A stretch of DNA of 32,000 nucleotides from an uncultured bacterium (GTDB lineage Bacteria > Auribacterota > JACPWU01), in NCBI GenBank assembly GCA_964640155.1, contig CAZXEQ010000002.1, positions 90,001 to 122,000 on the forward strand, given 5' to 3'. Shown one piece after another: positions 3,424-17,547 of the stretch (position 1 is the stretch's first letter; each line of letters starts with the position of its first letter). A program made the position numbers and the translations under genes. The notes beneath the pieces were generated by a model that saw nothing but the letters and a program-made list of their open reading frames with translations, was not told the DNA's origin and ran no database searches.

Positions 3424-6400
3424 ATGACCTCCATTTTTAGTCATAAATTTTGGCGTATTTTTGTGCTTATTGCCTTCGCCTTTCAAACCCTGACAAGCGA
3501 TGCATTCCTCACTTCTGTCAGTCAAAATCCTATTTCTATTAAACCCTTCACCTGGGCCGCTCATCTTGGAACTATTGTGGAACAATCTCAAGGCAGTCGT
3601 GGCCCATTTATCTTACATATTCAAGAAGCGCACTCTGTTCCTCAGGCTCAGAAAAAAATTGCTGAAATTATTCAGTGGTTTCAGAATCAAGGACTCTCAA
3701 AAGAATCTTTATCCATTGCTGTTGAAGGGGCTGTAGGACCTATCCCTACTTCCTTTCTTGGAAATTTTCCTTATGCCAAAGGGAGAGAAGAAATCACTCA
3801 AACTCTGATCGATGAAGGATGGCTCACAGGAGCCGAAGCTTTAGCTATTTCACATCCTGAATATCGTCTTCGCATTTTTGGTATTGAGGAATCTCAGGCC
3901 TATCTCAAAAATTTTTGGAGTTTTCGAAAGGCTCAAGCTGCTTGGCATCAAAAAGAATCTCAATGGAATGAACTAACCCAGATGCTTGATCAGACAAGGG
4001 AAAATGTTGATTCTCCTACGCTTCTTAGATGGAGTACACAGTTTTTTCATTTCAAAGATGGAAATTTAAGTTTTAAAGATTGGATTTCATTTTTAAATCA
4101 AGAAAAGTTTCATCCTCAAAATGAGCAAGCTCGGACTTTACTTCAAACTCTTCAACAAATTTCAGGAATGGATGAATCTGCCATCAAAAAAGAATTTATG
4201 GAGCTTTCAGAAAAAATTTCAAAGAAAAGTTCCAAGGAAGATTTAAAAAAATTCATTGAATTACAATTACGATTTCGCTTAGGGAAAATAGATTCGACTT
4301 CCTATTATGAAGAGCTCGCAAATGCATTAGACAAAAATGAACTATCTTTAAAAGATTTTCCACATCTTCAGAAAACCATTCAGTTACAACAAAAGTTAAG
4401 CGAAATAGAATGGGATAAAGCGCTAGAAACGCTTTTAAATGACGTCGAATCTCATATTCAAAATCATCTCATTAAAACAGAAGAAGAGCGCTCTTTGTGG
4501 GATTTCGAAAAATCCTTGCGCTTGGCTCAGCATGTCTTCCAATTGAAAGCTTCTAGAAAAGAGTGGGAGGAGTTTAAAAGGCCTGGCAGCATATCTACGT
4601 CATTCCGGCCCCGGATTCAAACACTCCGGGATGACAGGACTTCTCGTTTGTCATTCCCGAAGGTTTCTATCGGGAATCCATTCTTCTTAACTAAAGAAAT
4701 CTCTCAACTTTCCTGGTTTGAAAAATCAAATCTCTCATCAACTGAAAAAGAAAACTTTCTTAAAAATCATTATTTACTTTTAACTCTTTCTAAACAAGCT
4801 CAAGAATTTTATTATCATGCCGAAGAAAGAGACGAAATATTATTTAAAAATATTGAATCTCTTATCAAAAAAGAAAAACCTAAAGCGCTGATCGTTATAA
4901 CAGGCGGATTTCACACATCTCCCCTTCTTCAAAAATTAAAAGAAAAACATTTTAGTTTTTGTTCTGTCACACCACAAATGAGTGGAACTATTTCAGATGA
5001 ACTGTATTTAAAGCGCATGATGGATCAGACGCTTGAATCAAATAATTTTCATACAATCCCTTTAGCTTCTATTTTAAATCCTCTTTTTGATCTTTTGAAT
5101 CATGAAGCAGCTGAAAAACTGCGAAAAAATATCATGGGGCACTTTGTTGCCTGGGCTCGTAGAAATAATATTGCCCGTGAAGCTATTATTGCGCGTTGGC
5201 CGAAACCCAATATACCATCAGCCCCTGATCAAGCCCTCATCACAGCACTCTCCCAAGTTTGGGATGCGCCTATCACTGAGCTGCCTACCCAGGGAATCAC
5301 AGAAGAACAGACCAGAGAACTGGTCAAACTCGGAGAACCCATTTCTTCACTTTTGGAACAGTATTTGACTCAAATTCATGACAATAACTTATTAGAAATT
5401 GTAAAAGCAGAAAAAGATGACATTGACGATGAAATGCGGCTCGAAAGCGAACCAAATCTTTTAGTATTAATAAATAATCCTTTCATTCAACATATTCTTA
5501 AACGGCGAAAAAACCTAACTCGAGCCATCAAAGATGCCAGAATCGTTAAAAAGTTCTTGGTTTTTAATCGGTCAACTGTCAAAAGAATTTTTGACAGAAT
5601 CAATGCAATGCCCGATGAAAGAATTCTAGAAAAGATTAATAAATTTCTAGCAAGTAATTTGATCAATAACATTACAGGGCCCATCGAAGAATTTCTTAGA
5701 AGAGAAACTGTCGCTGATAATGACTTCCATCAAGTTTTTATGAATTGCGTTCACCATTTAATGACCCCAGATCTTCTTGATCAACCAAGGGAAATAGGAA
5801 AACGTTATCTCGCATATGTTGAATACGGTTACCTTTTATTGAAAGCTGTAGAAATTTTATCACGAACAAAACCTTATTTATTAAAAGTTACCCCGGCGAC
5901 CGTTCAAGTATCTGCCTCACCCACGAACATCCGAGACAAAGACGAAGCCATTTGCGAAGCCCTCACTGAAAGAATTTTTCAAGAAACGAATTTAGGTAGA
6001 ACAATTTATCCTAAGATTGATTGTGAAAAAGTCACATACAAACCTGTGGGCGGAGGGCATTTTACGCTTGAAGATGATGACATCACGGGACTTATTAAAT
6101 TTATCCGAATCGGCCCTCTATTTTTTATCGAAGAAGATATTTATCAGGGACTATCTTCGGATCTAAGAAAAGATTTAGGAGACAATGTCATTCGTTTAAC
6201 AAGTGTTAAAGGAGATATTGCCCCTCTCATGTATGGTAATTATACGCGAGCTGTGATTACCATGATGTTAAATAATGATTTTTCAGGGAAACGAGTTGTG
6301 GATGCAGGAGCAGGCAATGGAATTCTTTCACTTGTTGCATTAAAACTAGGAGCAACTTTTGTAGATTTAATTGATCACAGCATAGAGGAACTCGAGAGAG

Positions 6401-9400
6401 CCAAAGCACTTTTAGAGCTCAATGGTTTCGTCCCAGAAAAACATTTCTTATTACATATGCACGACCTCAAGAATCCTGACGCAATTCTTAAAGTATTATC
6501 ATCGCATGATGGAGAAACAGCTGTTATTTCCAATATTGGAACTCACCCCTATAATTATACTGTGACAAATGCGGATAGCATTCGTCTGGCCTCTAAAATT
6601 CCTCGCGTCACCCTTTTTATTGGGGGAGGGGATGAGGATACGGATGATTTTTCGCAAGCTAGATCTATAGATCAAGAACTCATCGGACAAGAAGGCTTTG
6701 TAGTACATCCCGTTATTTCGCGCATTCATGATTATGAAACCATCATCACCGCGTGGGCTGCGACGAAAAAAGTGGAAGAGAGAATTACCCCAAATGAACC
6801 TGAGGCTGATATCGAAGAAAAAGTCCAAAAAGCTCGAGAGAAAAATAAATCTGAAGAATGGGTAGGAAGAAAAAATGATCATGTTCTTACAACACTTAAA
6901 AAGCCATTTGAGAGGAGACATGTGGCTATTGGAGACGTGCATGGAGAACAATTCGCCGTTCAGCAAAACTTGAGAGATGCAGGATTAGTTGATGAAAATG
7001 ATGATTGGATTGGCGGTAATGCTATCGTGGTTCAATTGGGCGACATCATTGACCGTGGACCGCATTCCTACGAAGTAGATGTTTATCTTCGTAAGCTCCA
7101 ACAACAAGCCCGAAAGGCTGGTGGAAATGTCATCCGGCTTTTAGGGAATCATGAAGATATGTTTTTAAGAGGGATGCTAGGAGATAAGAAGCAATATAAC
7201 GATTGGTGGCTTGCTTGGACAACCTCTATGGCTTATCTATACAATCCTGCTTTTAATACCGCTTTTCAAAAAGTCGGTTACAACAACTTCCCTGATTTAA
7301 TTAAATCCGATACTCCTCCTGAAGACCCAGAACTTCTCAAATGGTGGCATCTTTATCGCAATCTTCTTACAGATATTGAAAATGGAAATATTCAAGCAGC
7401 ATACGAACATAATAATGTTCTCTTCACCCATGCGGGACTTAAGGGCAAAACAGGAATACTTCCTGCCTCCGACGGAAAAACAGCAGCAGCATATAATGCT
7501 GAACGCTTGAATGAAATATTAATAGATGAATATTTCAGAATAAAAAACCCACCACCTGGGGAGGAACAAATACCTCGCTCTCCCTTCCTGCTCTCGGCTC
7601 TTTGGAACAGAGCTCTTGATAGCTCCCCTGCTTTTGATTTACAAGTCGTCGCTCATGTTCCTAATCAAAATAATCGCAACATTCGCATTGGAGAAATTAA
7701 AGTGATCCGAACAGACATTGGTCAAAGTGCTGCAATGTATCAAGACAAAGGACGAAGAGGTTATGTAGATATTGAAGGGAATGAAGTTCGAGGGATTGAT
7801 TTAGCTAAAACCAGTGATCCTGTTTTACCTGAAGGGGTTCGTGGATACAAAGGAATTCCTAATGCTATACAAAATATCGGCAATGCAGTAGATAAGAAAG
7901 TTGATGAGGTATTAAGCAAGGCTATCGAAGTTGGTCCTACGAAAATTGTAGGGTTAACATTCGATGGTTCAATCGTAACCCAAAAGGCTTTTCCAAAAAT
8001 GGGATCTGGTCATGGGATTTCTTCTGAAAGCCTCCCTTCCCTTGCAGCCAATGAAGGTGTTTCCTTCACAGAAACTGAAATGGACAATCTCAAAAAAGTT
8101 TGGAGCAAAGTTATAGATCGAAACTTCCAACTCGGCATTTTAAGAGATGAAAATGTGATCTATCATGCGCAAGGCTCTGAAGAAATAGCCTACACGCATG
8201 CAGGCATTACAAAAGCTGGAGGAATATTCCGTGACGCCCAGCGCCGTATTTGGCTTACAGAAAATTTCCTCAAATGGCTGCTTAATAACGACACTGCTCT
8301 TCTCGAAAGAATCATTGAACATGATTTAAAACATTTGAATGATCCAGATTATAGGCATGATAACGATCTAGCCTATTACAATCCTTCGACTAAAAAAGGA
8401 TTATTAACCGATGTCAAATTAGCTGTATTACAAATGATTTTAGAAAGAACAGATAATGGACGCGCTGTCTTGATTGAAGATACTTCTGTAGAACCTTCTG
8501 ACGACTCTCTTGTAATGCAAGAAATGCCTATCGGAATCAGTCGAACTCTTACCTTGCTTGATGAACTCATTCAGGAACTCACGCCTAAAAAGGACCCGTT
8601 GCTTACTTATCTTCGTAAAATGAGAGAATCTATTAATGTCTTTGATGAATCTCCTTATGGTTCTTTAAACGTAGCCTCTGGGCTTCTAGCAATATCTTAT
8701 ATCCAAGATAAAATTTCTTTCTTAATAAATAAAGAAAAGTGGCCCCTTTGTTCTATGGATCTTAAAGATTTAAATCATCTTGATAAATTATTTTTAAAAG
8801 CAGCTCTTTATAAAGAAGCTCGTACATGGCAATTTATGGAAGATGAAATACCTCTTCAACTTCCTATTCGAGAAAGAATTCATACCGAATATGAAAGGCT
8901 AAGACAAGCTCTTGAAGATGGGGAAAAGATCTCTAGTCTTACTCCAGAACTTTTAGAAATGAGTCGAACTCTTTTAGCCATGCAAATTCATGCAGAATAT
9001 GTGGGTTATGAAGCCCAACGTGCTTTTGTAGCACAACATCTTCCTCAAGGAGCATCATCTGATTCCTTAGCTGCTCATGCTCGCAACCGTAGTCAAACGC
9101 GTGGCAAAGAAAGTCTAGGAAATTTGATTTCATCATTTTTAGATATGGTCTTGATTTCAGGACTGTATGGTATGGGGGCAGATGATACAGATAGAGGGTG
9201 GGAGCGAGGGGTCAAAATTTATTGTGCAGCACATTATTTACAAAATCGACATCTTTGGAAAGACCTTCTGGGAATTTCTTTGGAAGTAATCGAGAGGGAT
9301 GAAAACCAATCAGGAAGAGCAATTTTAGACCCTGAACAGGGGTTTACTCCGAATGGACCAGAAAGTCTTCCATTTTTAAGAAATCCTGCATATTTTGATC

Positions 9401-9738
9401 CTCGGCAAATTCCTGATCTTAGTCCCCTTGATATATCTGCCATTACAGCTAATAACATCGCGAATGCTATAAATAAATTTGCATCTAGAAAATTTTCTCC
9501 TCACTTACAACAACTTCTTGAACATTTGGTTGATTTAGATGTTCCTATAGAGTTTTTAATGATGGTTTTAGATCATCTTTCATCTGGAGATTCTAAATTG
9601 GCTAACGAATTAATTACAAAAATTTCCAAAACAAAACCTGAAGTCATTCATGCGCTCATACATTTTCCTGCTGAACAAGCTGCCGAAGAATTAATAATTA
9701 CACAAGATAGCTGGAGAAAGCTTCAAGAAGCAGCGTAA
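3424..9738 (+). CDS. Giant (2104 aa) multidomain protein: N-terminal signal/anchor, PrmA-like SAM methyltransferase module, PPP-family metallophosphatase module, large regions of unknown function
   Basis: One uninterrupted 6.3-kb ORF. The N-terminus FWRIFVLIAFAFQTLTSDA looks like a signal peptide or anchor. Catalytic motifs of two enzyme families sit mid-protein (see the sub-features). All nested ORFs on other frames are short. Confidence 0.85.
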   Translation: MTSIFSHKFWRIFVLIAFAFQTLTSDAFLTSVSQNPISIKPFTWAAHLGTIVEQSQGSRGPFILHIQEAHSVPQAQKKIAEIIQWFQNQGLSKESLSIAVEGAVGPIPTSFLGNFPYAKGREEITQTLIDEGWLTGAEALAISHPEYRLRIFGIEESQAYLKNFWSFRKAQAAWHQKESQWNELTQMLDQTRENVDSPTLLRWSTQFFHFKDGNLSFKDWISFLNQEKFHPQNEQARTLLQTLQQISGMDESAIKKEFMELSEKISKKSSKEDLKKFIELQLRFRLGKIDSTSYYEELANALDKNELSLKDFPHLQKTIQLQQKLSEIEWDKALETLLNDVESHIQNHLIKTEEERSLWDFEKSLRLAQHVFQLKASRKEWEEFKRPGSISTSFRPRIQTLRDDRTSRLSFPKVSIGNPFFLTKEISQLSWFEKSNLSSTEKENFLKNHYLLLTLSKQAQEFYYHAEERDEILFKNIESLIKKEKPKALIVITGGFHTSPLLQKLKEKHFSFCSVTPQMSGTISDELYLKRMMDQTLESNNFHTIPLASILNPLFDLLNHEAAEKLRKNIMGHFVAWARRNNIAREAIIARWPKPNIPSAPDQALITALSQVWDAPITELPTQGITEEQTRELVKLGEPISSLLEQYLTQIHDNNLLEIVKAEKDDIDDEMRLESEPNLLVLINNPFIQHILKRRKNLTRAIKDARIVKKFLVFNRSTVKRIFDRINAMPDERILEKINKFLASNLINNITGPIEEFLRRETVADNDFHQVFMNCVHHLMTPDLLDQPREIGKRYLAYVEYGYLLLKAVEILSRTKPYLLKVTPATVQVSASPTNIRDKDEAICEALTERIFQETNLGRTIYPKIDCEKVTYKPVGGGHFTLEDDDITGLIKFIRIGPLFFIEEDIYQGLSSDLRKDLGDNVIRLTSVKGDIAPLMYGNYTRAVITMMLNNDFSGKRVVDAGAGNGILSLVALKLGATFVDLIDHSIEELERAKALLELNGFVPEKHFLLHMHDLKNPDAILKVLSSHDGETAVISNIGTHPYNYTVTNADSIRLASKIPRVTLFIGGGDEDTDDFSQARSIDQELIGQEGFVVHPVISRIHDYETIITAWAATKKVEERITPNEPEADIEEKVQKAREKNKSEEWVGRKNDHVLTTLKKPFERRHVAIGDVHGEQFAVQQNLRDAGLVDENDDWIGGNAIVVQLGDIIDRGPHSYEVDVYLRKLQQQARKAGGNVIRLLGNHEDMFLRGMLGDKKQYNDWWLAWTTSMAYLYNPAFNTAFQKVGYNNFPDLIKSDTPPEDPELLKWWHLYRNLLTDIENGNIQAAYEHNNVLFTHAGLKGKTGILPASDGKTAAAYNAERLNEILIDEYFRIKNPPPGEEQIPRSPFLLSALWNRALDSSPAFDLQVVAHVPNQNNRNIRIGEIKVIRTDIGQSAAMYQDKGRRGYVDIEGNEVRGIDLAKTSDPVLPEGVRGYKGIPNAIQNIGNAVDKKVDEVLSKAIEVGPTKIVGLTFDGSIVTQKAFPKMGSGHGISSESLPSLAANEGVSFTETEMDNLKKVWSKVIDRNFQLGILRDENVIYHAQGSEEIAYTHAGITKAGGIFRDAQRRIWLTENFLKWLLNNDTALLERIIEHDLKHLNDPDYRHDNDLAYYNPSTKKGLLTDVKLAVLQMILERTDNGRAVLIEDTSVEPSDDSLVMQEMPIGISRTLTLLDELIQELTPKKDPLLTYLRKMRESINVFDESPYGSLNVASGLLAISYIQDKISFLINKEKWPLCSMDLKDLNHLDKLFLKAALYKEARTWQFMEDEIPLQLPIRERIHTEYERLRQALEDGEKISSLTPELLEMSRTLLAMQIHAEYVGYEAQRAFVAQHLPQGASSDSLAAHARNRSQTRGKESLGNLISSFLDMVLISGLYGMGADDTDRGWERGVKIYCAAHYLQNRHLWKDLLGISLEVIERDENQSGRAILDPEQGFTPNGPESLPFLRNPAYFDPRQIPDLSPLDISAITANNIANAINKFASRKFSPHLQQLLEHLVDLDVPIEFLMMVLDHLSSGDSKLANELITKISKTKPEVIHALIHFPAEQAAEELIITQDSWRKLQEAA
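4596..4680 (+). repeat. GC-enriched double-palindrome element lying in frame inside the giant CDS (MITE/REP-like)
   Basis: Two tandem units each begin GTCATTCC. Hairpin 1 pairs gtcattccgg (4599-4608) with ccgggatgac (4626-4635), 10 bp including one G-U. Hairpin 2 pairs attcccga (4653-4660) with tcgggaat (4670-4677), 8 bp. Local GC is clearly above the flanks. The element encodes SFRPRIQTLRDDRTSRLSFPKVSIGNP. Confidence 0.4.
6211..6630 (+). other. Domain: class I SAM-dependent methyltransferase, PrmA-like
   Basis: GNYTRAVITMMLNNDFSGKRVVDAGAGNGILSLVALKLGATFVDLIDHSIEELERAKALLELNGF contains motif I (VxDxGxGxG) followed by an acidic motif II. The later AVISNIG mirrors the PrmA layout (xVxANI). Confidence 0.7.
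6913..7730 (+). other. Domain: calcineurin-like / PPP-family metallophosphoesterase (lambda-phosphatase/Shelph-like)
   Basis: All three PPP signature motifs appear in order: IGDVHGE (GDxHG), LGDIIDRGP (GDxxDRG) and LGNHED (GNHE). The downstream metal-ligand histidines are in FTHAG and VVAHVP. Confidence 0.8.
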
Positions 9739-9870
9739 AAAATATTGTTTATCTTTCTTAAGAACACTCAAATCTCAACTTTCCATTTTCAAAAGCTTGT
9801 TCTCTCTGATATTCTAAGACTAATTTAAATCACTCACAAAACAGGGGGAAGAGATTTTAATCTCATACAC

Positions 9871-10893
9871 ATGCGCGTCGGGTTAACTTTCAATCTCAAA
9901 GATCCTCATGCAAACCCGGCAGACGAACAAGGGGCAGAATGGGACTCTCCTGAAACCATCAACGCCATTGTTCAGGCCTTATCAACAGAACATGTGGTTA
10001 TTCCCATTTTAGCGGATGAAGAGGCTTTTCCTAAACTCAAGAAAGAACGGCCTGATATTGTTTTTAACATCGCAGAAGGAAAGCTCGGGCCCAATCGCGA
10101 AGCCCATATTCCGGCCATGCTAGAATTTTTAGGGATCCCTTACACAGGTTCAGATCCTCTAACTTTAAGTATTTGCCTAGATAAAGCCATGACAAAAAAA
10201 GTTCTTAAGTTTAGCAATATTCCTACTCCCCCTTTTCAAGTGGTTCAAGAAGTTTCGCAGTTGAATGGATTTAATTCTTTTCCTGCTCTTGTAAAACCCT
10301 TATGGGAAGGCTCTAGCATTGGTATTCACAATGCTTCCTGGGTTGAAAACAAAAAAGAACTTGATACTCAAGTAAATCGTGTAACTGAGAACTATCATCA
10401 ACCTGCTATCATTGAACAAGCTGTAACCGGAAGAGAATTTACCGTTGCACTTTTAGGCAATGAAGAAAATCTGACCGTGCTTCCTATTGTTGAAGTCAGA
10501 CTTGATGTTCTTCCAACCCAAGCTCGTCCGATTTACTCCTACGAAGCCAAATGGATTTGGGATATCCCAGAAAAACCCTTAGAAATTTTTCAGTGCCCTG
10601 CTTTGATTGACAACCCATTAAAATTACAAATTGAAAAAATAGCAAAAGACGCTTTTAAAGCTCTTTCGTGTAGAGACTGGTGCCGCATAGATATTCGACT
10701 AGACGCTAAGGGGGAACCTCACGTTTTAGAACTGAATCCCCTGCCCGGTATTTTGCCAGATCCAAAACAGAATTCATGTTTCCCAAAAGCAGCTCGAGCC
10801 GCAGGACTCAGCTACACACAAATGATTTTCAAAGTTCTTGAGTCCGCCCTTCAACGTTATCATCTCGACTCTGAAAGAACGATCCATGCGTGA
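9871..10893 (+). CDS. ATP-grasp amide ligase, D-Ala-D-Ala-ligase-like but non-canonical (paralog 1)
   Basis: 340 aa. ATP-grasp core motifs are ALVKPLWEGSSIGI, IEQAVTGREFTVALLG and CRIDIRLDAKGEPHVLELNPLPG (Mg/ATP E-x-N). The N-terminus MRVGLTFNLKD lacks the Ddl GGxSxE(H/R)xVS motif. Confidence 0.85.
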   Translation: MRVGLTFNLKDPHANPADEQGAEWDSPETINAIVQALSTEHVVIPILADEEAFPKLKKERPDIVFNIAEGKLGPNREAHIPAMLEFLGIPYTGSDPLTLSICLDKAMTKKVLKFSNIPTPPFQVVQEVSQLNGFNSFPALVKPLWEGSSIGIHNASWVENKKELDTQVNRVTENYHQPAIIEQAVTGREFTVALLGNEENLTVLPIVEVRLDVLPTQARPIYSYEAKWIWDIPEKPLEIFQCPALIDNPLKLQIEKIAKDAFKALSCRDWCRIDIRLDAKGEPHVLELNPLPGILPDPKQNSCFPKAARAAGLSYTQMIFKVLESALQRYHLDSERTIHA

Positions 10894-11926
10894 GAAAAAT
10901 ACATCGAGAAAAATTGTAATCATCTATGATGCTACTCCTGATTCTCAACAAGACACAGAAATCAAGGCGGCATTGGACATTCTTAAAGACGTACAAAGCA
11001 TTCAAGGGATTCTGAATAAGGATGGATTCAAAACAGAAATCCTAGGGCTTCGTTTTCCACTGATGGAAAAAATTCAATATTTGATCGATTTCAAACCAGA
11101 TCTTGTTTTTAATTTATGTGAGGGGTTAGGAGAAAACAGCTCTTCAGAAATTCATGTGGCCTCTGTTTTAGAACTCTTTAATATCCCTTTTACAGGATCA
11201 GGCCCTCTTGCATTGGCGCTCTGCCATAACAAAGCTTTGACCAAAGCCATCTTAAATACTCATCACATTCCCACCCCTCAATATCTTGTCATAAAACCTG
11301 GTGATAAAATTTCAAAAAATGGATTGGGCTTTCCATTGATCGTAAAACCTATTCATGAAGATGGAAGTTTTGGAATTGAAGATGATTCTGTTGTTTCAAA
11401 TATGCAAGAGCTAAAAAATAAAACTATCATGATTCATAAAGTTTTTCATCAACCCGCTATCATTGAAGAATATATTGATGGTCGTGAATTTAATGTTTCT
11501 ATTTTAGGGAATAATTCTTTTGATTTTGTGCAAATGAGAGAAATTGAATTTTCCCCTTCTTCTGATGTTAAAATACTCAGTTTTAAATCTAAATGGAAGC
11601 AATCTAGTTTGGACTATCAAGCAACTCTTTCAACTTCCGTAAAACAACTTTCTAAATCTATTGAAAATAAAATCTTGTGCTTAGCTCAAGAATGTTTCAG
11701 AATCTTTAATATGAGGGATTACGCAAGAATTGATTTTCGCTTTGGGAAAAGCGAAGTCCCTTATGTGATTGATATTAATCCCAATCCCTGTATCTCTGAC
11801 GGATCAGGCATGGTGCTCGCAGCAAAACAAAATAAAATAAATTATGCAAACCTTATCCGAAAAATCGCTCATCTCGGGCTTGCAAGAAGTTCTGCCCTGC
11901 AAAGTTCGAGACGCCATTCTTTCTGA
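10886..11926 (+). CDS. ATP-grasp amide ligase, D-Ala-D-Ala-ligase-like but non-canonical (paralog 2)
   Basis: The track ORF starts at 10838. I prefer the ATG at 10886 (MREKNTSRKIVIIYD), which overlaps the upstream stop by 8 nt (ATGCGTGA). Motifs are LIVKPIHEDGSFGI, IEEYIDGREFNVSILG and ARIDFRFGKSEVPYVIDINPNPC. It is clearly paralogous to the preceding gene (PDLVFNLCEG...FNIPFTGSGPLALALCHNKALTK). Confidence 0.85.
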   Translation: MREKNTSRKIVIIYDATPDSQQDTEIKAALDILKDVQSIQGILNKDGFKTEILGLRFPLMEKIQYLIDFKPDLVFNLCEGLGENSSSEIHVASVLELFNIPFTGSGPLALALCHNKALTKAILNTHHIPTPQYLVIKPGDKISKNGLGFPLIVKPIHEDGSFGIEDDSVVSNMQELKNKTIMIHKVFHQPAIIEEYIDGREFNVSILGNNSFDFVQMREIEFSPSSDVKILSFKSKWKQSSLDYQATLSTSVKQLSKSIENKILCLAQECFRIFNMRDYARIDFRFGKSEVPYVIDINPNPCISDGSGMVLAAKQNKINYANLIRKIAHLGLARSSALQSSRRHSF

Positions 11927-12401
11927 CCGACAAAAAATTCAATCCATTTTAGAATCGGTGGGTGTTTTTAACTCCACAGAAGTGGAATGCGCTATTTCTT
12001 TGTTCGATATTTATATTAAAGTTGGCGCTAAGCCAGAAGAGTACATTTTCCTCTGTGCCGAAGATGCAGCAGGAAAAATCACTGGATTTCTTTGCTACGG
12101 AGAAGCCTCTTTAACGCATGGGACCTATGATCTTTATTGGGTTGCCACAGATCCTCTTCATCAAAAAAAAGGCATCGCTAGCCTTCTTATGAAAGCACTT
12201 GAAGAACAACTTCAAAAATTAAATGCTCGTTGGATACTCGCTGAAACATCCTCTCGCATAGAATATACATCCACGCGCCGATTTTACACCCAGCAAGACT
12301 ACAAAATTATTTCAACCATTCAAGATTACTACAATGCAGGTGATGATTTAGTTGTTTTTGGGAAAAGAATCTCGGCACGAGAAAAAGAAGCTAAGAATTA
12401 A
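11844..12401 (+). CDS. GNAT-family N-acetyltransferase
   Basis: 185 aa. The acetyl-CoA motif A is YWVATDPLHQKKGIASLLMKALEEQL (Q/R-x-x-G-x-A/G). The start is uncertain: the ATG at 11844 overlaps the upstream gene by 83 nt, and a TTG at 11880 is the alternative. Confidence 0.8.
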   Translation: MQTLSEKSLISGLQEVLPCKVRDAILSDRQKIQSILESVGVFNSTEVECAISLFDIYIKVGAKPEEYIFLCAEDAAGKITGFLCYGEASLTHGTYDLYWVATDPLHQKKGIASLLMKALEEQLQKLNARWILAETSSRIEYTSTRRFYTQQDYKIISTIQDYYNAGDDLVVFGKRISAREKEAKN

Positions 12402-12460
12402 ACATTTTTCGTTGAGAGAATAATCAATTAACGGTAGAATAAAGAAAAAGGGGGAATTGA

Positions 12461-13711
12461 TTGAAGGATAAAATCCTTAAATCGCTTGATGCCACGCAGG
12501 AACAATGGTCGGATTGGCATTGGCAAATGCGTTCTCGTTTTACAACCGCCAAAGAGCTCAAAAACTTTATTCATCTTTCTAAGGAAGAGGAAAAAGGGAT
12601 TGCATGGGCTTCTGATCAAAAAAATCTTCCACTTGCCATTCCTCCCTATTTTGTCTCACTGATGGATCCCAATGACCCCAATTGTCCTATTCGCCGTCAA
12701 GTCATCTGTCGCGTAGAAGAATCTTATGATGCTGTTTTTGATATGCAAGATCCTTGTGGTGAAGATTCTCACACCCCTGTCCCCAATCTGGTTCATCGCT
12801 ATCCCGATCGTGTTCTTTTAATTGCCACAGACCGCTGTCTTTCTTATTGTCGCTACTGCACCAGAAAAAGAATTGTAGGAACAGGTGAAGTCGGACTTTC
12901 CACCGAGAAACTCAACAAAATTTGTGAATATTTAGAAAAAACACCTCAAGTGCGTGACGTTCTGATTTCAGGCGGAGATCCTCTGATTCAGTCTGATGAG
13001 AGAATTGATCAACTTCTAGGTCGACTGAGAAAGATCAAACATCTTGAAATTTTGCGCATTGGAACAAGGGCTCCCATTTTTATTCCGCAACGTGTTACAT
13101 CCGATTTAGTTTCAGTTTTAAAGAAATATCATCCATTTATGATGAGCATTCACATCAATCATCCCAAAGAAATTTCAGAAGAGTCCAGCAAAGCCCTTCA
13201 AATGCTTGTGGACGGTGGCATTCCTTTAGGAAGTCAAACCGTTCTTTTAAAGGGAGTCAATGACCAACCCGAGATTGTCACCAAACTTTGCCATGAACTT
13301 TTGAAAGTCCGCGTCAAACCCTATTATCTTTATCAATGCGATCCTATTTTCGGAACCGAGCATTTCCGAACCAGTGTCGATGTGGGCGTCAAAATCATTG
13401 AAAAAATGAGGGGACATACGACAGGTTATGCGATTCCCACCTTTGTGGTAGATGCGCCTGGAGGCGGTGGGAAAATTCCTGTTGCACCTAATTATCTCAT
13501 TTCAAAAGTACGGGATAAAACCATTTTAAGAAATTATGAAAATAAGATTTTTGAATATCATGACCCCCTTGAAGTTGGGATTCAAAAGAAAAAGACCAAA
13601 ATAGATCATCACCTCCCTGTTCAACTCACCCTTCCTCTCAGTGTTGAGGCCCTCAAACCCTCTTCCAATACTAAATCTTCCAAACCTAAGCTCAAAAGCG
13701 CATTGAGATAA
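12461..13711 (+). CDS. kamA: Lysine 2,3-aminomutase (radical SAM / PLP), full-length KamA/AblA type
   Basis: 416 aa with a TTG start and an AAGGGGG RBS. The radical-SAM triad is CLSYCRYC (CxxxCxxC). The PLP-lysine loop is FVVDAPGGGGK. Close collinear resemblance to Clostridium KamA (HRYPDRVLL, VRDVLISGGDP, PYYLYQCD, EHFRT). Confidence 0.9.
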   Translation: MKDKILKSLDATQEQWSDWHWQMRSRFTTAKELKNFIHLSKEEEKGIAWASDQKNLPLAIPPYFVSLMDPNDPNCPIRRQVICRVEESYDAVFDMQDPCGEDSHTPVPNLVHRYPDRVLLIATDRCLSYCRYCTRKRIVGTGEVGLSTEKLNKICEYLEKTPQVRDVLISGGDPLIQSDERIDQLLGRLRKIKHLEILRIGTRAPIFIPQRVTSDLVSVLKKYHPFMMSIHINHPKEISEESSKALQMLVDGGIPLGSQTVLLKGVNDQPEIVTKLCHELLKVRVKPYYLYQCDPIFGTEHFRTSVDVGVKIIEKMRGHTTGYAIPTFVVDAPGGGGKIPVAPNYLISKVRDKTILRNYENKIFEYHDPLEVGIQKKKTKIDHHLPVQLTLPLSVEALKPSSNTKSSKPKLKSALR

Positions 13712-13754
13712 GTTTGATTAAATTTTTCTCTACAATCATTCTTGAAATCGTATA

Positions 13755-14765
13755 ATGGTTCGCTTTATGAATGAACGTCCATTTTTAGAAACAATCGATT
13801 TTGGCATCGCTTGGGAATGGGAGTATGATCAGGATTTCATCAAAAACCTGACACTCGCATGCGAAAAACATTCTCTCTCTTATCTCACCCTACATCCCAA
13901 AAATTTTGAAACAATCAAAAAGCGTGTTGATGAAGGCTCTCTTTCATTTCGAACTTTCTTAGATCGAGCCGGAGACACCTTAGAATATTTCAATCCTGTT
14001 GTAGAAAAACTACGCGCTAAGGGAACTTGGATTATCAATCATGCAAGTGACGTCGAAAGATCCCGTGATAAAGCGACAATGCATCTAGAATTTCTAACCA
14101 AAGGACTTGAAGTCCCTTTCACCGTCATCCTCTCTTCTTATGATAAAGACCCTGAACTTCGTTTTAGCGAACTTGAAAATCTGGGACGACCTTTCATCAT
14201 CAAACCCGCATGCGGCGCGGGTGGTTTGGGAGTAGTGATGGGGGCAGAAAATCTCTTAGATATTATTGAAGCTCGTAAAGAATATCGTCAGGATAAATAT
14301 TTGCTTCAACGTAAAATCATTCCCCGAAATTTGGGACCGCGCAGAGCTTGGTTTCGATCTTATTATGTATGCGGGAAAGTCATTTCATGTTGGTGGGATG
14401 ATCAAACACATCTTTATGATGTGATAACGCCTGAAGAAAATAATTTTTATCGCCTTTCAAAATTCAAAACCATCATGAAAACAATTTCTGAAGTCGCACA
14501 GCTTAATTTCTTTTCTTCAGAAATTGCCATTGATGCAGACAATAAATTTATCGTGGTCGACTACGTGAATGAACCCTGCGACATGAGAATCAAGTCTATT
14601 CATCCAGATGGAGTCCCAGACCTCGTGGTTCAAGAAGTCGTAGAAGCTTTAATTGTAGGAGTAAAAAGAGAATTAAAAAATCAACATATGAATACTTCTG
14701 CAATAAAACAGGCGGGGCCTTCTTTTCTTCAAAACGCCGGGAAACAGGTCAGCACAAAAATTTAA
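13755..14765 (+). CDS. ATP-grasp family ligase (third, divergent, RimK/GshB-like)
   Basis: 336 aa. It has the glycine-rich ATP-grasp loop FIIKPACGAGGLGVVMG, then YLLQRKIIP and a C-terminal metal-binding region, FSSEIAIDADNKFIVVDYVNEPCD. The ATG at 13767 is an alternative start. Confidence 0.75.
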   Translation: MVRFMNERPFLETIDFGIAWEWEYDQDFIKNLTLACEKHSLSYLTLHPKNFETIKKRVDEGSLSFRTFLDRAGDTLEYFNPVVEKLRAKGTWIINHASDVERSRDKATMHLEFLTKGLEVPFTVILSSYDKDPELRFSELENLGRPFIIKPACGAGGLGVVMGAENLLDIIEARKEYRQDKYLLQRKIIPRNLGPRRAWFRSYYVCGKVISCWWDDQTHLYDVITPEENNFYRLSKFKTIMKTISEVAQLNFFSSEIAIDADNKFIVVDYVNEPCDMRIKSIHPDGVPDLVVQEVVEALIVGVKRELKNQHMNTSAIKQAGPSFLQNAGKQVSTKI

Positions 14766-15073
14766 CTTCTCTCCCTATCAAGATCTTCAAATTTATAAAT
14801 AATCTCTTTAGGCTTAGCCATTCCTAATTCTTCGCGAGCGACTTTTTCAATATACAGAGGATCTGATTTGAGTCGTCCGATTTCTTCCTGAAGATTTTGA
14901 TTTTGAGTTTGCAAACTTTCAATCTCATCTTCCAAAACTTGAATCTGCTGATAAACTCTAGTTAATCTTAAGAAGTTCGGAGAAAAAACATAAATCAAAA
15001 GCGCAAAAATCACCGCGCCAAAAACAATGTTTTTCCAACCATCTTTCTTCATGAAAAACCCTAAACGGTTCAC
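14762..15073 (-). CDS. ftsB: Septum formation initiator, FtsB/DivIC family
   Basis: One N-terminal TM helix (IVFGAVIFALLIYVF), then a coiled coil (LEDEIESLQTQNQNLQEEIGRLKSD) and the family C-terminus YIEKVAREELGMAKPKEIIYKF. The track start at 15073 is a GTG; the ATG at 15052 is equally plausible. Confidence 0.8.
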   Translation of the reverse strand: MNRLGFFMKKDGWKNIVFGAVIFALLIYVFSPNFLRLTRVYQQIQVLEDEIESLQTQNQNLQEEIGRLKSDPLYIEKVAREELGMAKPKEIIYKFEDLDRERS

Positions 15074-15117
15074 CTATTATCCGGTAACCGGTAAACTGGC
15101 TAACCGGCAAACTAATT

Positions 15118-16487
<1,370 letters not shown>

Positions 16488-16776: not shown

Positions 16777-17547
16777 GTGAATATTCAATCTACTTTGAGC
16801 TTTCCATTTAAAGATTCAAACTGGGTTACAAAATTTTTGATTGGAGGGGTTCTTTCTCTTGTCAGTCTTTTGCCTCTAGCTTGCGGTTTTTTGATCGGAG
16901 AAAATGGTTTTATCAAAGTGCTTACCTATTTACTTTTCCTTCTTCTGTTGGTGGCCTTTCTTGCCCCTCTAGGTTATGCCTACAATATTCTTAAAGGAGC
17001 TCAAAATGCACAGGCTCCTAGTCTTCCTGAATGGAAAGATTGGCCCGCTCTTGTTAAAGATGGCGTAATGGTTTTTGCCGTTTGCCTTGCTTATGGAGTA
17101 GTTGTGTGGGTTTTAAGCTGGATTGTCAGCGTTCTTTCCATACGAATTCCAGTCATTGGTTCTATCTTCTCATTATTACAAATTGTCATTGGCCTTTTAA
17201 GTCTCTTGGCTGGACCTTTTATTGCTGTAGCTCTTTGTAAAATGGCTCAATCTGGCCAAATTATGTCCTCTTTTAAAGTGCTTGAAATTTTAAACGAACT
17301 TAAATCAAAAGCTTCTGAATACATTACGGTTTCATTAATTTTAATCGGAATCATGTATGTCATACGGACTTCATTGGGACTCAATCTTTATGAAACTATG
17401 ATGATTTCAAGAATTTTCACAAGAACAGCCATGAGTTTTCCTTTGGTGGGACTTTTAACACCTTTTGTTATTTTTTGGATGCTGATTGTTTCTTTTAGAA
17501 TGTATGGCGAAATTTACGCAAGCAATAAAACAGCGAACGTTTCTTAA
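16777..17547 (+). CDS. Polytopic membrane protein, DUF4013-like
   Basis: GTG start with an AAGGAGG RBS 5 nt upstream. The N-terminus FPFKDSNWVTKFLIGGVLSL matches my memory of the DUF4013 family opening. There are about 6 hydrophobic segments. Confidence 0.7.
   Translation: MNIQSTLSFPFKDSNWVTKFLIGGVLSLVSLLPLACGFLIGENGFIKVLTYLLFLLLLVAFLAPLGYAYNILKGAQNAQAPSLPEWKDWPALVKDGVMVFAVCLAYGVVVWVLSWIVSVLSIRIPVIGSIFSLLQIVIGLLSLLAGPFIAVALCKMAQSGQIMSSFKVLEILNELKSKASEYITVSLILIGIMYVIRTSLGLNLYETMMISRIFTRTAMSFPLVGLLTPFVIFWMLIVSFRMYGEIYASNKTANVS

Follow-up and report, generated by a model that had tools for sequence, protein, structure and literature searches.

The 32,000-nucleotide window analyzed here is a stretch of a contig from an uncultured Auribacterota bacterium (CAZXEQ010000002.1, positions 90,001 to 122,000). 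It carries a compact cassette of five genes that encode two D-alanine--D-alanine ligase (Ddl)-like ATP-grasp enzymes (Ddl1 and Ddl2), a GNAT acetyltransferase, a lysine 2,3-aminomutase (KamA), and a third ATP-grasp enzyme (grasp3). The cassette is a real and widely conserved operon that is apparently uncharacterized. With moderate confidence, we read it as the operon of a cytoplasmic, non-ribosomal amide-ligase pathway that consumes beta-lysine, and we predict that an N-acetyl-capped peptidyl- or acyl-beta-lysine is made and kept in the cell. The five genes are consecutive open reading frames (ORFs) on the plus strand of the window, as follows.

9871-10893, plus strand: Ddl1, Ddl-like ATP-grasp 1, 340 amino acids (aa); Pfam Dala_Dala_lig_C, 1.5e-37
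10886-11926, plus strand: Ddl2, Ddl-like ATP-grasp 2, 346 aa from an ATG, with an upstream TTG at 10838 also open; Pfam Dala_Dala_lig_C, 1e-24
11844 or 11880 to 12401, plus strand: GNAT, 185 or 173 aa; Pfam Acetyltransf_7 and Acetyltransf_1
12461-13711, plus strand: KamA, lysine 2,3-aminomutase, 416 aa from a TTG start; Radical_SAM and LAM_C
13755-14765, plus strand: grasp3, third ATP-grasp, 336 aa, or 332 aa from the start at 13767 chosen by independent gene callers; ATP-grasp fold in an AlphaFold model

The same five genes were obtained in independent gene calls on the source contig (Logan assembly of SRR8893623), and these calls, together with a direct reading of the sequence, confirm the coordinates, overlaps, and spacers given in the original prediction for this DNA. 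The ATG of Ddl2 overlaps the stop codon of Ddl1 in the octamer ATGCGTGA (8 nt, 10886-10893, read directly from the sequence), and GNAT starts 47 or 83 nt inside Ddl2, depending on the start codon. Spacers of 59 nt (12402-12460) and 43 nt (13712-13754) separate GNAT from KamA and KamA from grasp3, respectively. The gene overlaps are consistent with translational coupling, and a scan showed no terminator-like sites on the plus strand within the cassette. The gene identities proposed earlier also held, as four were confirmed by Pfam and NCBIfam, while the fifth, grasp3, gives marginal sequence matches and was identified by its AlphaFold fold.

Conservation was followed in two surveys. The first was anchored on grasp3 and used one genome per species (80 loci of the grasp3 family). 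The second was anchored on Ddl1 and used metagenome contigs (80 loci), of which 35 loci with adequate flanks served for presence counts; five loci from further look-ups bring the tabulated Ddl1 set to 85, truncated contigs included. The complete five-gene order recurs in three other genomes of the grasp3-anchored survey, namely a Candidatus Auribacterota metagenome-assembled genome (MAG) of the PVC group that is the nearest named relative (L002, proteins 89-97% identical), a 'Chlamydiae'-labelled MAG (L003, 53-75%), and a 'Cytophagia'-labelled MAG (L060, 36-54%, with gene overlaps of 4-14 nt). Among the 35 well-flanked Ddl1 loci, Ddl2 is present in 33, KamA in 29, GNAT in 26, and grasp3 in 2, and all four core genes (Ddl1, Ddl2, GNAT, and KamA) occur together in 24. 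The commonest architecture, Ddl1-Ddl2-GNAT-KamA, accounts for 35 of the 85 tabulated loci. Since the mean Ddl1 identity in the KamA-linked set is just 58% (minimum 45%), these loci are deeply diverged. The co-conservation in relatives on which the original prediction depended is therefore found, and the arrangement is far beyond chance because the five-gene order is kept in three genomes and the four-gene core in dozens of metagenome loci. A fortuitous adjacency of unrelated genes is refuted by the gene order, overlaps, and fusions that are kept across phyla, and we assign it a negligible probability.

The four-gene core is far more widespread than the five-gene order and includes cultured sulfate reducers. 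Lineages with the cassette comprise the PVC group, Kryptonia, Nitrospinae, Thermodesulfobacteriota, and Desulfovibrionaceae. More specifically, Ddl1-Ddl2-GNAT-KamA is found in Candidatus Kryptobacter tengchongensis, Ddl1-GNAT-KamA-grasp3-CorA in one unclassified bacterium, and KamA-Ddl1-Ddl2-GNAT, preceded by a sigma-54 activator gene, in the complete genome of Desulfovibrio mangrovi. The last order is repeated in a Desulfovibrionaceae contig whose GNAT is 99% identical to PDB 2R7H. Minimal KamA-Ddl1 pairs without any GNAT of the cassette family also occur (L087, L089, and L166). The cassette is thus neither the property of one exotic lineage nor rare, with more than 8000 detectable members in the Ddl1 family and about 860 representative clusters at E<1e-30 in the GNAT family.

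Ddl1 is the most conserved member of the cassette, at about 55-60% identity across phyla. Ddl1 and Ddl2 share 34% identity with each other and about 25-30% each with true Ddl. They share with Ddl and VanA the acyl-phosphate mechanism, the ATP/Mg motifs (Lys, Arg, Asp, and Glu/Asp-x-Asn are retained in both proteins), and, for Ddl1, the whole fold: the AlphaFold2 model of Ddl1 superposes on Ddl structures over its full length (TM 0.7-0.8, Foldseek), and its top 50 Foldseek matches are all Ddl or D-Ala-D-Lac ligases, including VanA. However, both proteins score under every curated cut-off (Ddl, Van, and other models). With the NCBIfam Ddl models, whose cut-offs are 243 and 245.65, Ddl1 reaches 192.9 and 170.2 and Ddl2 reaches 140.4 and 121.5, respectively. 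The substrate site differs as well. The 'LHG' of Ddl is 'AEG' in Ddl1 and 'CEG' in Ddl2, a change of His to Glu in both paralogues, and the omega-loop 'AKY' is 'AKW' in Ddl1 and 'SKW' in Ddl2, a change of Tyr to Trp; these residues are His63 and Tyr216 in E. coli Ddl numbering. Ddl1 has in addition a 4-residue insertion after 'PG', beside a Ser-containing loop, and the changed substrate-site residues are invariant across the Ddl1 family. Unlike Ddl and VanA, Ddl1 and Ddl2 form a paralogous pair that accompanies an amine-producing enzyme and not mur genes. Judged from these sequence features, Ddl1 and Ddl2 appear to be competent ATP-grasp ligases that descend from D-Ala-D-Ala ligase and are not housekeeping Ddl, and the label 'D-alanine--D-alanine ligase' on thousands of such genes is probably wrong.

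KamA aligns over residues 10-371 with the lysine 2,3-aminomutase of Clostridium subterminale (PDB 2A5H, E 5.3e-141). In the latter enzyme, Lys337 is the pyridoxal phosphate (PLP) lysine, Arg134 binds the carboxylate, and the Asp293/Asp330 pair binds the lysine epsilon-ammonium, while glutamate 2,3-aminomutase has Lys and Asn at the two Asp positions. The equivalents of all four residues, along with the CxxxCxxC cysteines (Cys125, Cys129, and Cys132 of 2A5H), are kept in the window KamA and in 51/51 cassette KamAs. The conversion of L-lysine to beta-lysine by KamA is thus well supported, as far as sequence can indicate it. The protein had been called full-length, which holds for the complete catalytic core but not for the zinc site and the tail: the Zn-site Cys268 of the Clostridium enzyme is replaced by Gln in the window KamA and by Asp, Ser, or Asn in relatives, and C-terminal tail cysteines number zero in the window KamA and in 44/51 relatives, the other seven having one or two with no conserved cluster. 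As a side observation, the gene directly upstream of the PLP-dependent KamA in L038 is pdxA (7773-8642), which serves PLP biosynthesis, and in L166 a pdxA-like ORF (395-1411), identified from its N-terminal sequence alone, is found two genes upstream. Since these two lineages are unrelated, the neighborhood may represent a cofactor-supply linkage.

Among NCBIfam models, the window KamA scores 479.7 bits with AblA, 438.5 with glutamate 2,3-aminomutase, 370.5 with arginine 2,3-aminomutase, 350.6 with the KamA-family model TIGR00238, and 245.6 with EpmB. It passes the cut-off of TIGR00238 (199.2), and its best match, the AblA equivalog TIGR03820, lies just under the cut-off (525.4) because the C-terminal 45-55 model positions are missing. 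The score with the EpmB equivalog TIGR03821 is well below the cut-off of 369.3, and no other KamA-family model scores lower with the window protein or with six relatives; the ranking in seven cassette KamAs is AblA, glutamate, and arginine, followed by the generic KamA and AblA-like-2 models in varying order, with EpmB last. On these scores KamA clearly lies outside the EpmB family, which disposes of one objection that had been raised in advance, and neither epmA nor efp was found in the window. The cassette is like EpmA/EpmB in that a KamA-family enzyme would feed beta-lysine to a dedicated ligase, and unlike it in the family of the aminomutase, in the use of ATP-grasp ligases instead of a lysyl-tRNA synthetase paralogue, and in the absence of efp linkage.

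The GNAT matches PDB 2R7H, its sole close solved relative, over its full length (2.8e-23). This structure was deposited as a 'putative D-alanine N-acetyltransferase', a name that presumably reflects the neighboring genes, and we take its source to be the genetically tractable strain G20. A search with the GNAT profile against 1.84 billion representative proteins returned 8478 relatives, 864 of them at E<1e-30. Among the best 150 GNAT-family representatives, 57 have a Ddl-like ATP-grasp fused to the N-terminal side of the GNAT; 50 of these 57 fusions are closer to Ddl2 than to Ddl1. One Ddl-like::GNAT fusion directly follows the Ddl1 gene in L169, in the slot of Ddl2; the GNAT and the ligases are separate genes in the window. 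From the Ddl2::GNAT fusions we infer that Ddl2 and the GNAT act on the same molecule.

Some GNAT-family representatives are instead fused to an amidohydrolase of the histone deacetylase (HDAC) family. Such fusions lie beside or inside the KamA-Ddl1-Ddl2 operon in L167 (9629-11386) and L172 (3746-6034), and proteins of this kind include P0389 and P0434. The 762-aa HDAC::GNAT of L172 fills the GNAT slot of the operon, and over about 260 aa at the N terminus it is similar to the GNAT-HDAC arrangement of D. mangrovi, where a GNAT-HDAC gene follows the operon. It is unusual for one polypeptide to hold both an acetyltransferase and a deacetylase, and this hints at a cycle of reversible acetylation. 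Because the HDAC family hydrolyzes N-acetyl groups on alkyl-amines such as N-epsilon-acetyl-lysine and acetylpolyamines, these partners suggest that the acetyl group is removable and carried by a side-chain-type amine.

AblA and AblB make N-epsilon-acetyl-beta-lysine (PMC3543383), and it could be argued that KamA and the GNAT do the same by themselves while the Ddl-like genes are co-transcribed spare cell-wall ligases. As in AblA/AblB (kamA/yodP in Bacillus), an AblA-like KamA, for which AblA is the best-scoring model, is found beside an acetyltransferase, the two enzymes are cytoplasmic, and the likely product is an acetylated derivative of beta-lysine; N-epsilon-acetyl-beta-lysine is moreover an established osmolyte in bacteria and archaea. 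However, the cassette GNAT is not AblB-like. It is a protein of about 170 aa from the 2R7H family, and a scan of NCBIfam, which we take to include an AblB model, gave it no AblB-type match and only weak RimI-type matches (best 34.5 bits). Its fusion partner in the 57 representatives is Ddl2 and not KamA. Also unlike AblA/AblB, two or three ATP-grasp ligases are integral partners, and the cassette KamA is without the C-terminal Zn-binding region. KamA-Ddl1 pairs exist without a GNAT, and Ddl1-Ddl2-GNAT sets exist without KamA. Finally, the changed substrate residues and sub-threshold Ddl scores fit poorly with spare cell-wall ligases. We therefore regard this explanation as quite improbable. 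By the same token, the original prediction of an AblAB-like pair joined by three ligases needs revision, both as to the pair, given that the close relative of the GNAT is the functionally unassigned 2R7H, and as to the conserved unit: at its evolutionary core are Ddl1-Ddl2(-GNAT) and an enzyme that makes an amine.

This definition of the core follows the six well-flanked Ddl1 loci that are without KamA. All six carry a pyruvoyl arginine decarboxylase (PvlArgDC) immediately upstream of Ddl1, with a gene overlap of 4 nt in one case, and either KamA or PvlArgDC is present in 35/35 well-flanked loci, never both. The earlier question of whether kamA is always present is thus answered in part, with KamA as the usual and PvlArgDC as the alternative companion. 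Most PvlArgDC loci also carry an agmatinase and, behind Ddl2, an S-adenosylmethionine (SAM) methyltransferase. In L113, L120, and L145, the order is a deoxyhypusine-synthase-like gene, PvlArgDC, grasp3, Ddl1, Ddl2, GNAT, a methyltransferase, and a second GNAT. Beta-lysine is therefore one of two alternative amine inputs. Because agmatine and putrescine have amines without a carboxylate, the simplest interpretation is that the amine is the nucleophile and that the ligases activate another carboxylate. The idea of a beta-lysine-containing product, as first put forward, stands at its core, with the amendment that beta-lysine is not the only amine and is probably the nucleophile. We note two further features of these loci. 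The deoxyhypusine-synthase-family gene and PvlArgDC upstream of grasp3 (L113 5789-7425, L120 7439-9069, and L145 3482-5210) are limited to those three close relatives, and a predicted membrane protein of about 80 aa lies downstream of the methyltransferase in L086 (10903-11154), L098 (4663-4902), and six other PvlArgDC-type loci.

The third ligase stands apart from this core. It falls in a family of its own, without a name and with more than 1700 proteins, and its sequence matches are weak: 33.8 bits with rimK_fam (cut-off 143.4) and 24.6 bits with LysX (cut-off 275.6) in NCBIfam, a weak match to the 'sugar-transfer associated ATP-grasp' family, and marginal Ddl matches only in a profile search against PDB sequences. 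The AlphaFold model of grasp3 (20 homologues, pLDDT 86.9) is nevertheless a complete ATP-grasp fold, whose top Foldseek matches are Ddl, ArgX/LysX, PsnB, and RimK (TM about 0.6), and the motifs IIKP, GxGV, LLQE, and DYVN are invariant. With Ddl1, Ddl2, and grasp3 all under the curated cut-offs, and with the substrate-site residues of the Ddl-like pair changed, the possibility that the ATP-grasp proteins are bona fide Ddl or RimK, which had been named beforehand as fatal to the proposal, is not borne out. A gene for grasp3 is the direct neighbor of KamA in L038, L065, and L082 and precedes Ddl1 in L113, L120, and L145; overlapping KamA-grasp3 pairs are found in two Verrucomicrobiota MAGs. We consider grasp3 an accessory member of the cassette because it stands alone in about 70 of the 80 grasp3-family loci, mostly in a housekeeping neighborhood in Ignavibacteria and Bacteroidota, and is present in few of the Ddl1 loci. 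The stand-alone genes (about 70 loci among L004-L081, e.g., L012, L028, and L044) have a TPR protein upstream on the opposite strand, and their downstream neighbors in Ignavibacteria and Bacteroidota are a CpoB/YbgF-like coiled-coil TPR protein and RadA.

The structural matches of grasp3 raise the possibility, which we consider unlikely, that the cassette modifies proteins. In such a system, one or more of the ATP-grasp enzymes would attach beta-lysine or a short peptide to a protein such as elongation factor P (EF-P) or a ribosomal protein, and the GNAT and HDAC would act on the modified side chain. EpmA/EpmB or RimK would be its functional analogues. Indeed, grasp3 resembles the protein-modifying RimK, LysX/ArgX, and PsnB in fold and size as closely as it does Ddl (Foldseek E about 1e-11 to 1e-12), and like rimK it is a stand-alone conserved gene in most genomes. 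The level of Ddl1 conservation across phyla is as expected of enzymes that act on conserved macromolecules, the KamA and PvlArgDC/agmatinase/deoxyhypusine-synthase-like modules represent chemistries that modify EF-P and a/eIF5A, and HDAC-family enzymes typically deacetylate N-epsilon-acetyl-lysine. However, the identity of grasp3 to RimK, LysX/ArgX, and graspetide ligases is just 13-20%, and it has no linked carrier, target, or precursor gene; efp, rpsF, and a LysW-like carrier are unlinked in the window and in some 165 related loci. KamA clearly does not belong to the EpmB family, and the deoxyhypusine-synthase link is limited to one close set of three loci. In addition, an ATP-grasp enzyme could not transfer agmatine or putrescine, which offer no carboxylate, to a protein lysine. 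A new beta-lysine-based protein modification is less likely than a new class of metabolite.

The ancestry of the two core ligases also invites an explanation at the cell surface, where they would amidate the carboxylates of a peptidoglycan-like stem or a surface polysaccharide with beta-lysine, agmatine, or putrescine. There are precedents for envelope amidation in polyamine-linked peptidoglycan and amidated uronic acids, and D-Ala-D-Ala ligase is the ancestor of the two core ligases. The Ddl1-Ddl2 pair of the PvlArgDC variant has GT4 glycosyltransferases and a methyltransferase behind it, Kdo-pathway genes lie downstream at some loci, and the weak match of grasp3 to a sugar-transfer associated family points in the same direction. 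However, the glycosyltransferase linkage is limited to one sub-clade, and no mur, fts, flippase, undecaprenyl-linked, or export genes are conserved with the cassette. The neighbors in the window are unrelated housekeeping genes, and all five proteins look soluble and cytoplasmic. We hold this explanation to be improbable.

We therefore return to the cytoplasmic amide-ligase pathway. In the first step, KamA would turn L-lysine into beta-lysine. Ddl1 and Ddl2 would then each make an acyl-phosphate with ATP and form one amide bond, and the most likely outcome is a short acyl or aminoacyl chain built on an amino group of beta-lysine, with beta-lysine acting as the amine nucleophile. In the third step, as the fusions suggest, the 2R7H-type GNAT would work with Ddl2 and acetylate the free alkyl-amine that is left over, thereby neutralizing its charge; in some lineages the HDAC-family amidohydrolase could strip the acetyl group again. 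Where grasp3 is in the operon, it may add one further amide bond, as its independent pairing with KamA would imply. The predicted product would thus have one to three acyl or aminoacyl units linked to beta-lysine. Because neither an exporter nor a carrier protein, precursor peptide, or small ORF is conserved with the cassette, the product is taken to be a cytoplasmic small molecule. By analogy with known pathways, its most plausible role would be that of a charge-balanced compatible solute or a polyamine-like stress metabolite.

Two Desulfovibrionaceae loci bear on this reading. A sigma-54 element with one mismatch (TGGCAT-N5-TTGCT) lies between the sigma-54 activator gene and kamA in L167 (5457-5472) and L168 (5488-5503), and the activator gene and the element together point to conditional expression, which we count in favor of the proposed pathway. 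The called start of kamA in L168 (484 aa) lies upstream of this element and is probably over-extended. No sigma-54 promoter was found upstream of the cassette in the window, and we make no claim about regulation there because promoter and terminator counts are not above shuffled expectation. A search of 9300-15300 for riboswitches and known RNAs gave a lone match to PhrS at chance level (E=0.66; 16.8 bits, gathering score 37).

Several observations weigh against the proposed pathway. Among the conserved companions of the cassette there is no osmotic or stress regulator or transporter, and the role of the product is drawn from analogy only. The grasp3 gene is mostly unlinked to KamA, which makes its substrate in this operon uncertain. 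Moreover, ligases that recognize different amines fit poorly with the sequences of the pair: no Ddl1 residues separate KamA-linked from PvlArgDC-linked loci, Ddl1 identity between the two groups is 57% against 58% within the KamA group, and Ddl2 has only two weak discriminating positions. For the same reason, neither ligase can be singled out as the amine handler. Either the ligases bind a shared feature of the amines, or the PvlArgDC genomes encode KamA elsewhere. The PvlArgDC loci also form a narrower clade (mean identity 69%), and part of the PvlArgDC linkage could thus be inherited synteny.

A broader proposal, which we offer tentatively, is that the Ddl1-Ddl2 pair defines a large unrecognized class of metabolites, in which a cationic amine (mostly beta-lysine from KamA, otherwise agmatine or putrescine from a pyruvoyl decarboxylase) would be extended by ATP-grasp amide bonds and capped by acetylation or methylation. 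Such metabolites would act as compatible solutes or stand in for polyamines, and they would be common among anaerobes from several phyla.

Two characterized systems combine similar chemistries. Ngg couples acetylation with peptide-bond formation to produce the cytoplasmic osmolyte N-acetylglutaminylglutamine amide (PMC8070244). The cassette relatives with Ddl2::GNAT fusions likewise have a GNAT and a peptide ligase in one polypeptide, and a small N-acetylated product is predicted here as well. The ligase domain of Ngg is also an ATP-grasp, and its domain order appears to be opposite to that of Ddl2::GNAT. Unlike Ngg/AsnO, the cassette uses a Ddl-derived ATP-grasp clade, has no AsnO-type amidotransferase (no asparagine-synthetase-like neighbor was among the conserved neighbor clusters), and takes as input a radical-SAM-derived beta-amino acid where Ngg takes glutamine. 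PylB and PylC perform a radical SAM rearrangement of lysine followed by amide coupling by an ATP-dependent ligase (PMC8225853). The logic of the cassette is alike, with a radical SAM lysine enzyme followed by an ATP-dependent ligase. PylC is, in addition, an ATP-grasp ligase. However, KamA is a PLP-dependent 2,3-aminomutase and not a PylB-type mutase, the cassette has no dehydrogenase and no PylD, pylS, or pylT, and no PylC entries were among the sequence or fold matches of Ddl1.

Other candidate functions were tried and rejected. In a search for a LysW-like carrier or a precursor of a peptide that is made by the ribosome and modified post-translationally (RiPP), the small ORFs of the window and the clustered ORFs of 35-115 aa around 85 cassettes gave no conserved candidate; the recurring small ORFs at these cassettes are alternative-frame artefacts inside conserved genes and the one membrane protein of the PvlArgDC sub-clade. 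PADLOC models for defence systems gave one insignificant match.

The cassette is flanked in the window by unrelated housekeeping genes (ftsB, enolase, UDP-sugar dehydrogenase, priA, def, and fmt) and by one lineage-specific protein. The latter is encoded directly upstream by a 2104-aa ORF (3424-9738, plus strand) with a hydrophobic segment at its N terminus, a metallophosphoesterase domain of the calcineurin-like kind (residues ~1167-1330), and a stretch that weakly resembles a PrmA-like methyltransferase (~948-1006). It is probably unrelated to the cassette because it is not kept upstream of it in L003 or L060. Downstream, an ftsB/DivIC-like gene (14762-15073, minus strand) converges on grasp3, with stop codons that overlap by 4 nt, and is followed by an enolase ORF (15118-16446, minus strand; 442 aa from a TTG start). 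In relatives the start lies about 19 codons further in (423 aa in L002), and the 442-aa call is therefore probably too long. The cassette also has enolase and ftsB nearby in L003 and L082, and a multi-pass DUF4013 membrane protein (16777-17547, plus strand) keeps its place with respect to enolase in L002 and L003.

No description of the cassette was found in the searchable full-text literature, in agreement with the original prediction that the pathway is undescribed; the amidoligase-neighborhood survey of Iyer et al. 2009 lies outside that scope and may mention the cassette. The cassette varies known small-molecule pathways that join ATP-grasp and GNAT enzymes and is not a categorically new system. 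Because cultured Desulfovibrionaceae carry the core (D. mangrovi and the relative whose GNAT is 99% identical to 2R7H), the question is directly testable. If our reading is true, it would give a function to thousands of genes labelled 'D-alanine--D-alanine ligase' and to the structural-genomics entry 2R7H; surveys of the cell wall and of vancomycin resistance can be led astray by wrong Ddl labels. Should a solute or a polyamine-like cation be the product, the pathway would be a widespread addition to the means by which anaerobes handle osmotic, charge, or nitrogen stress.

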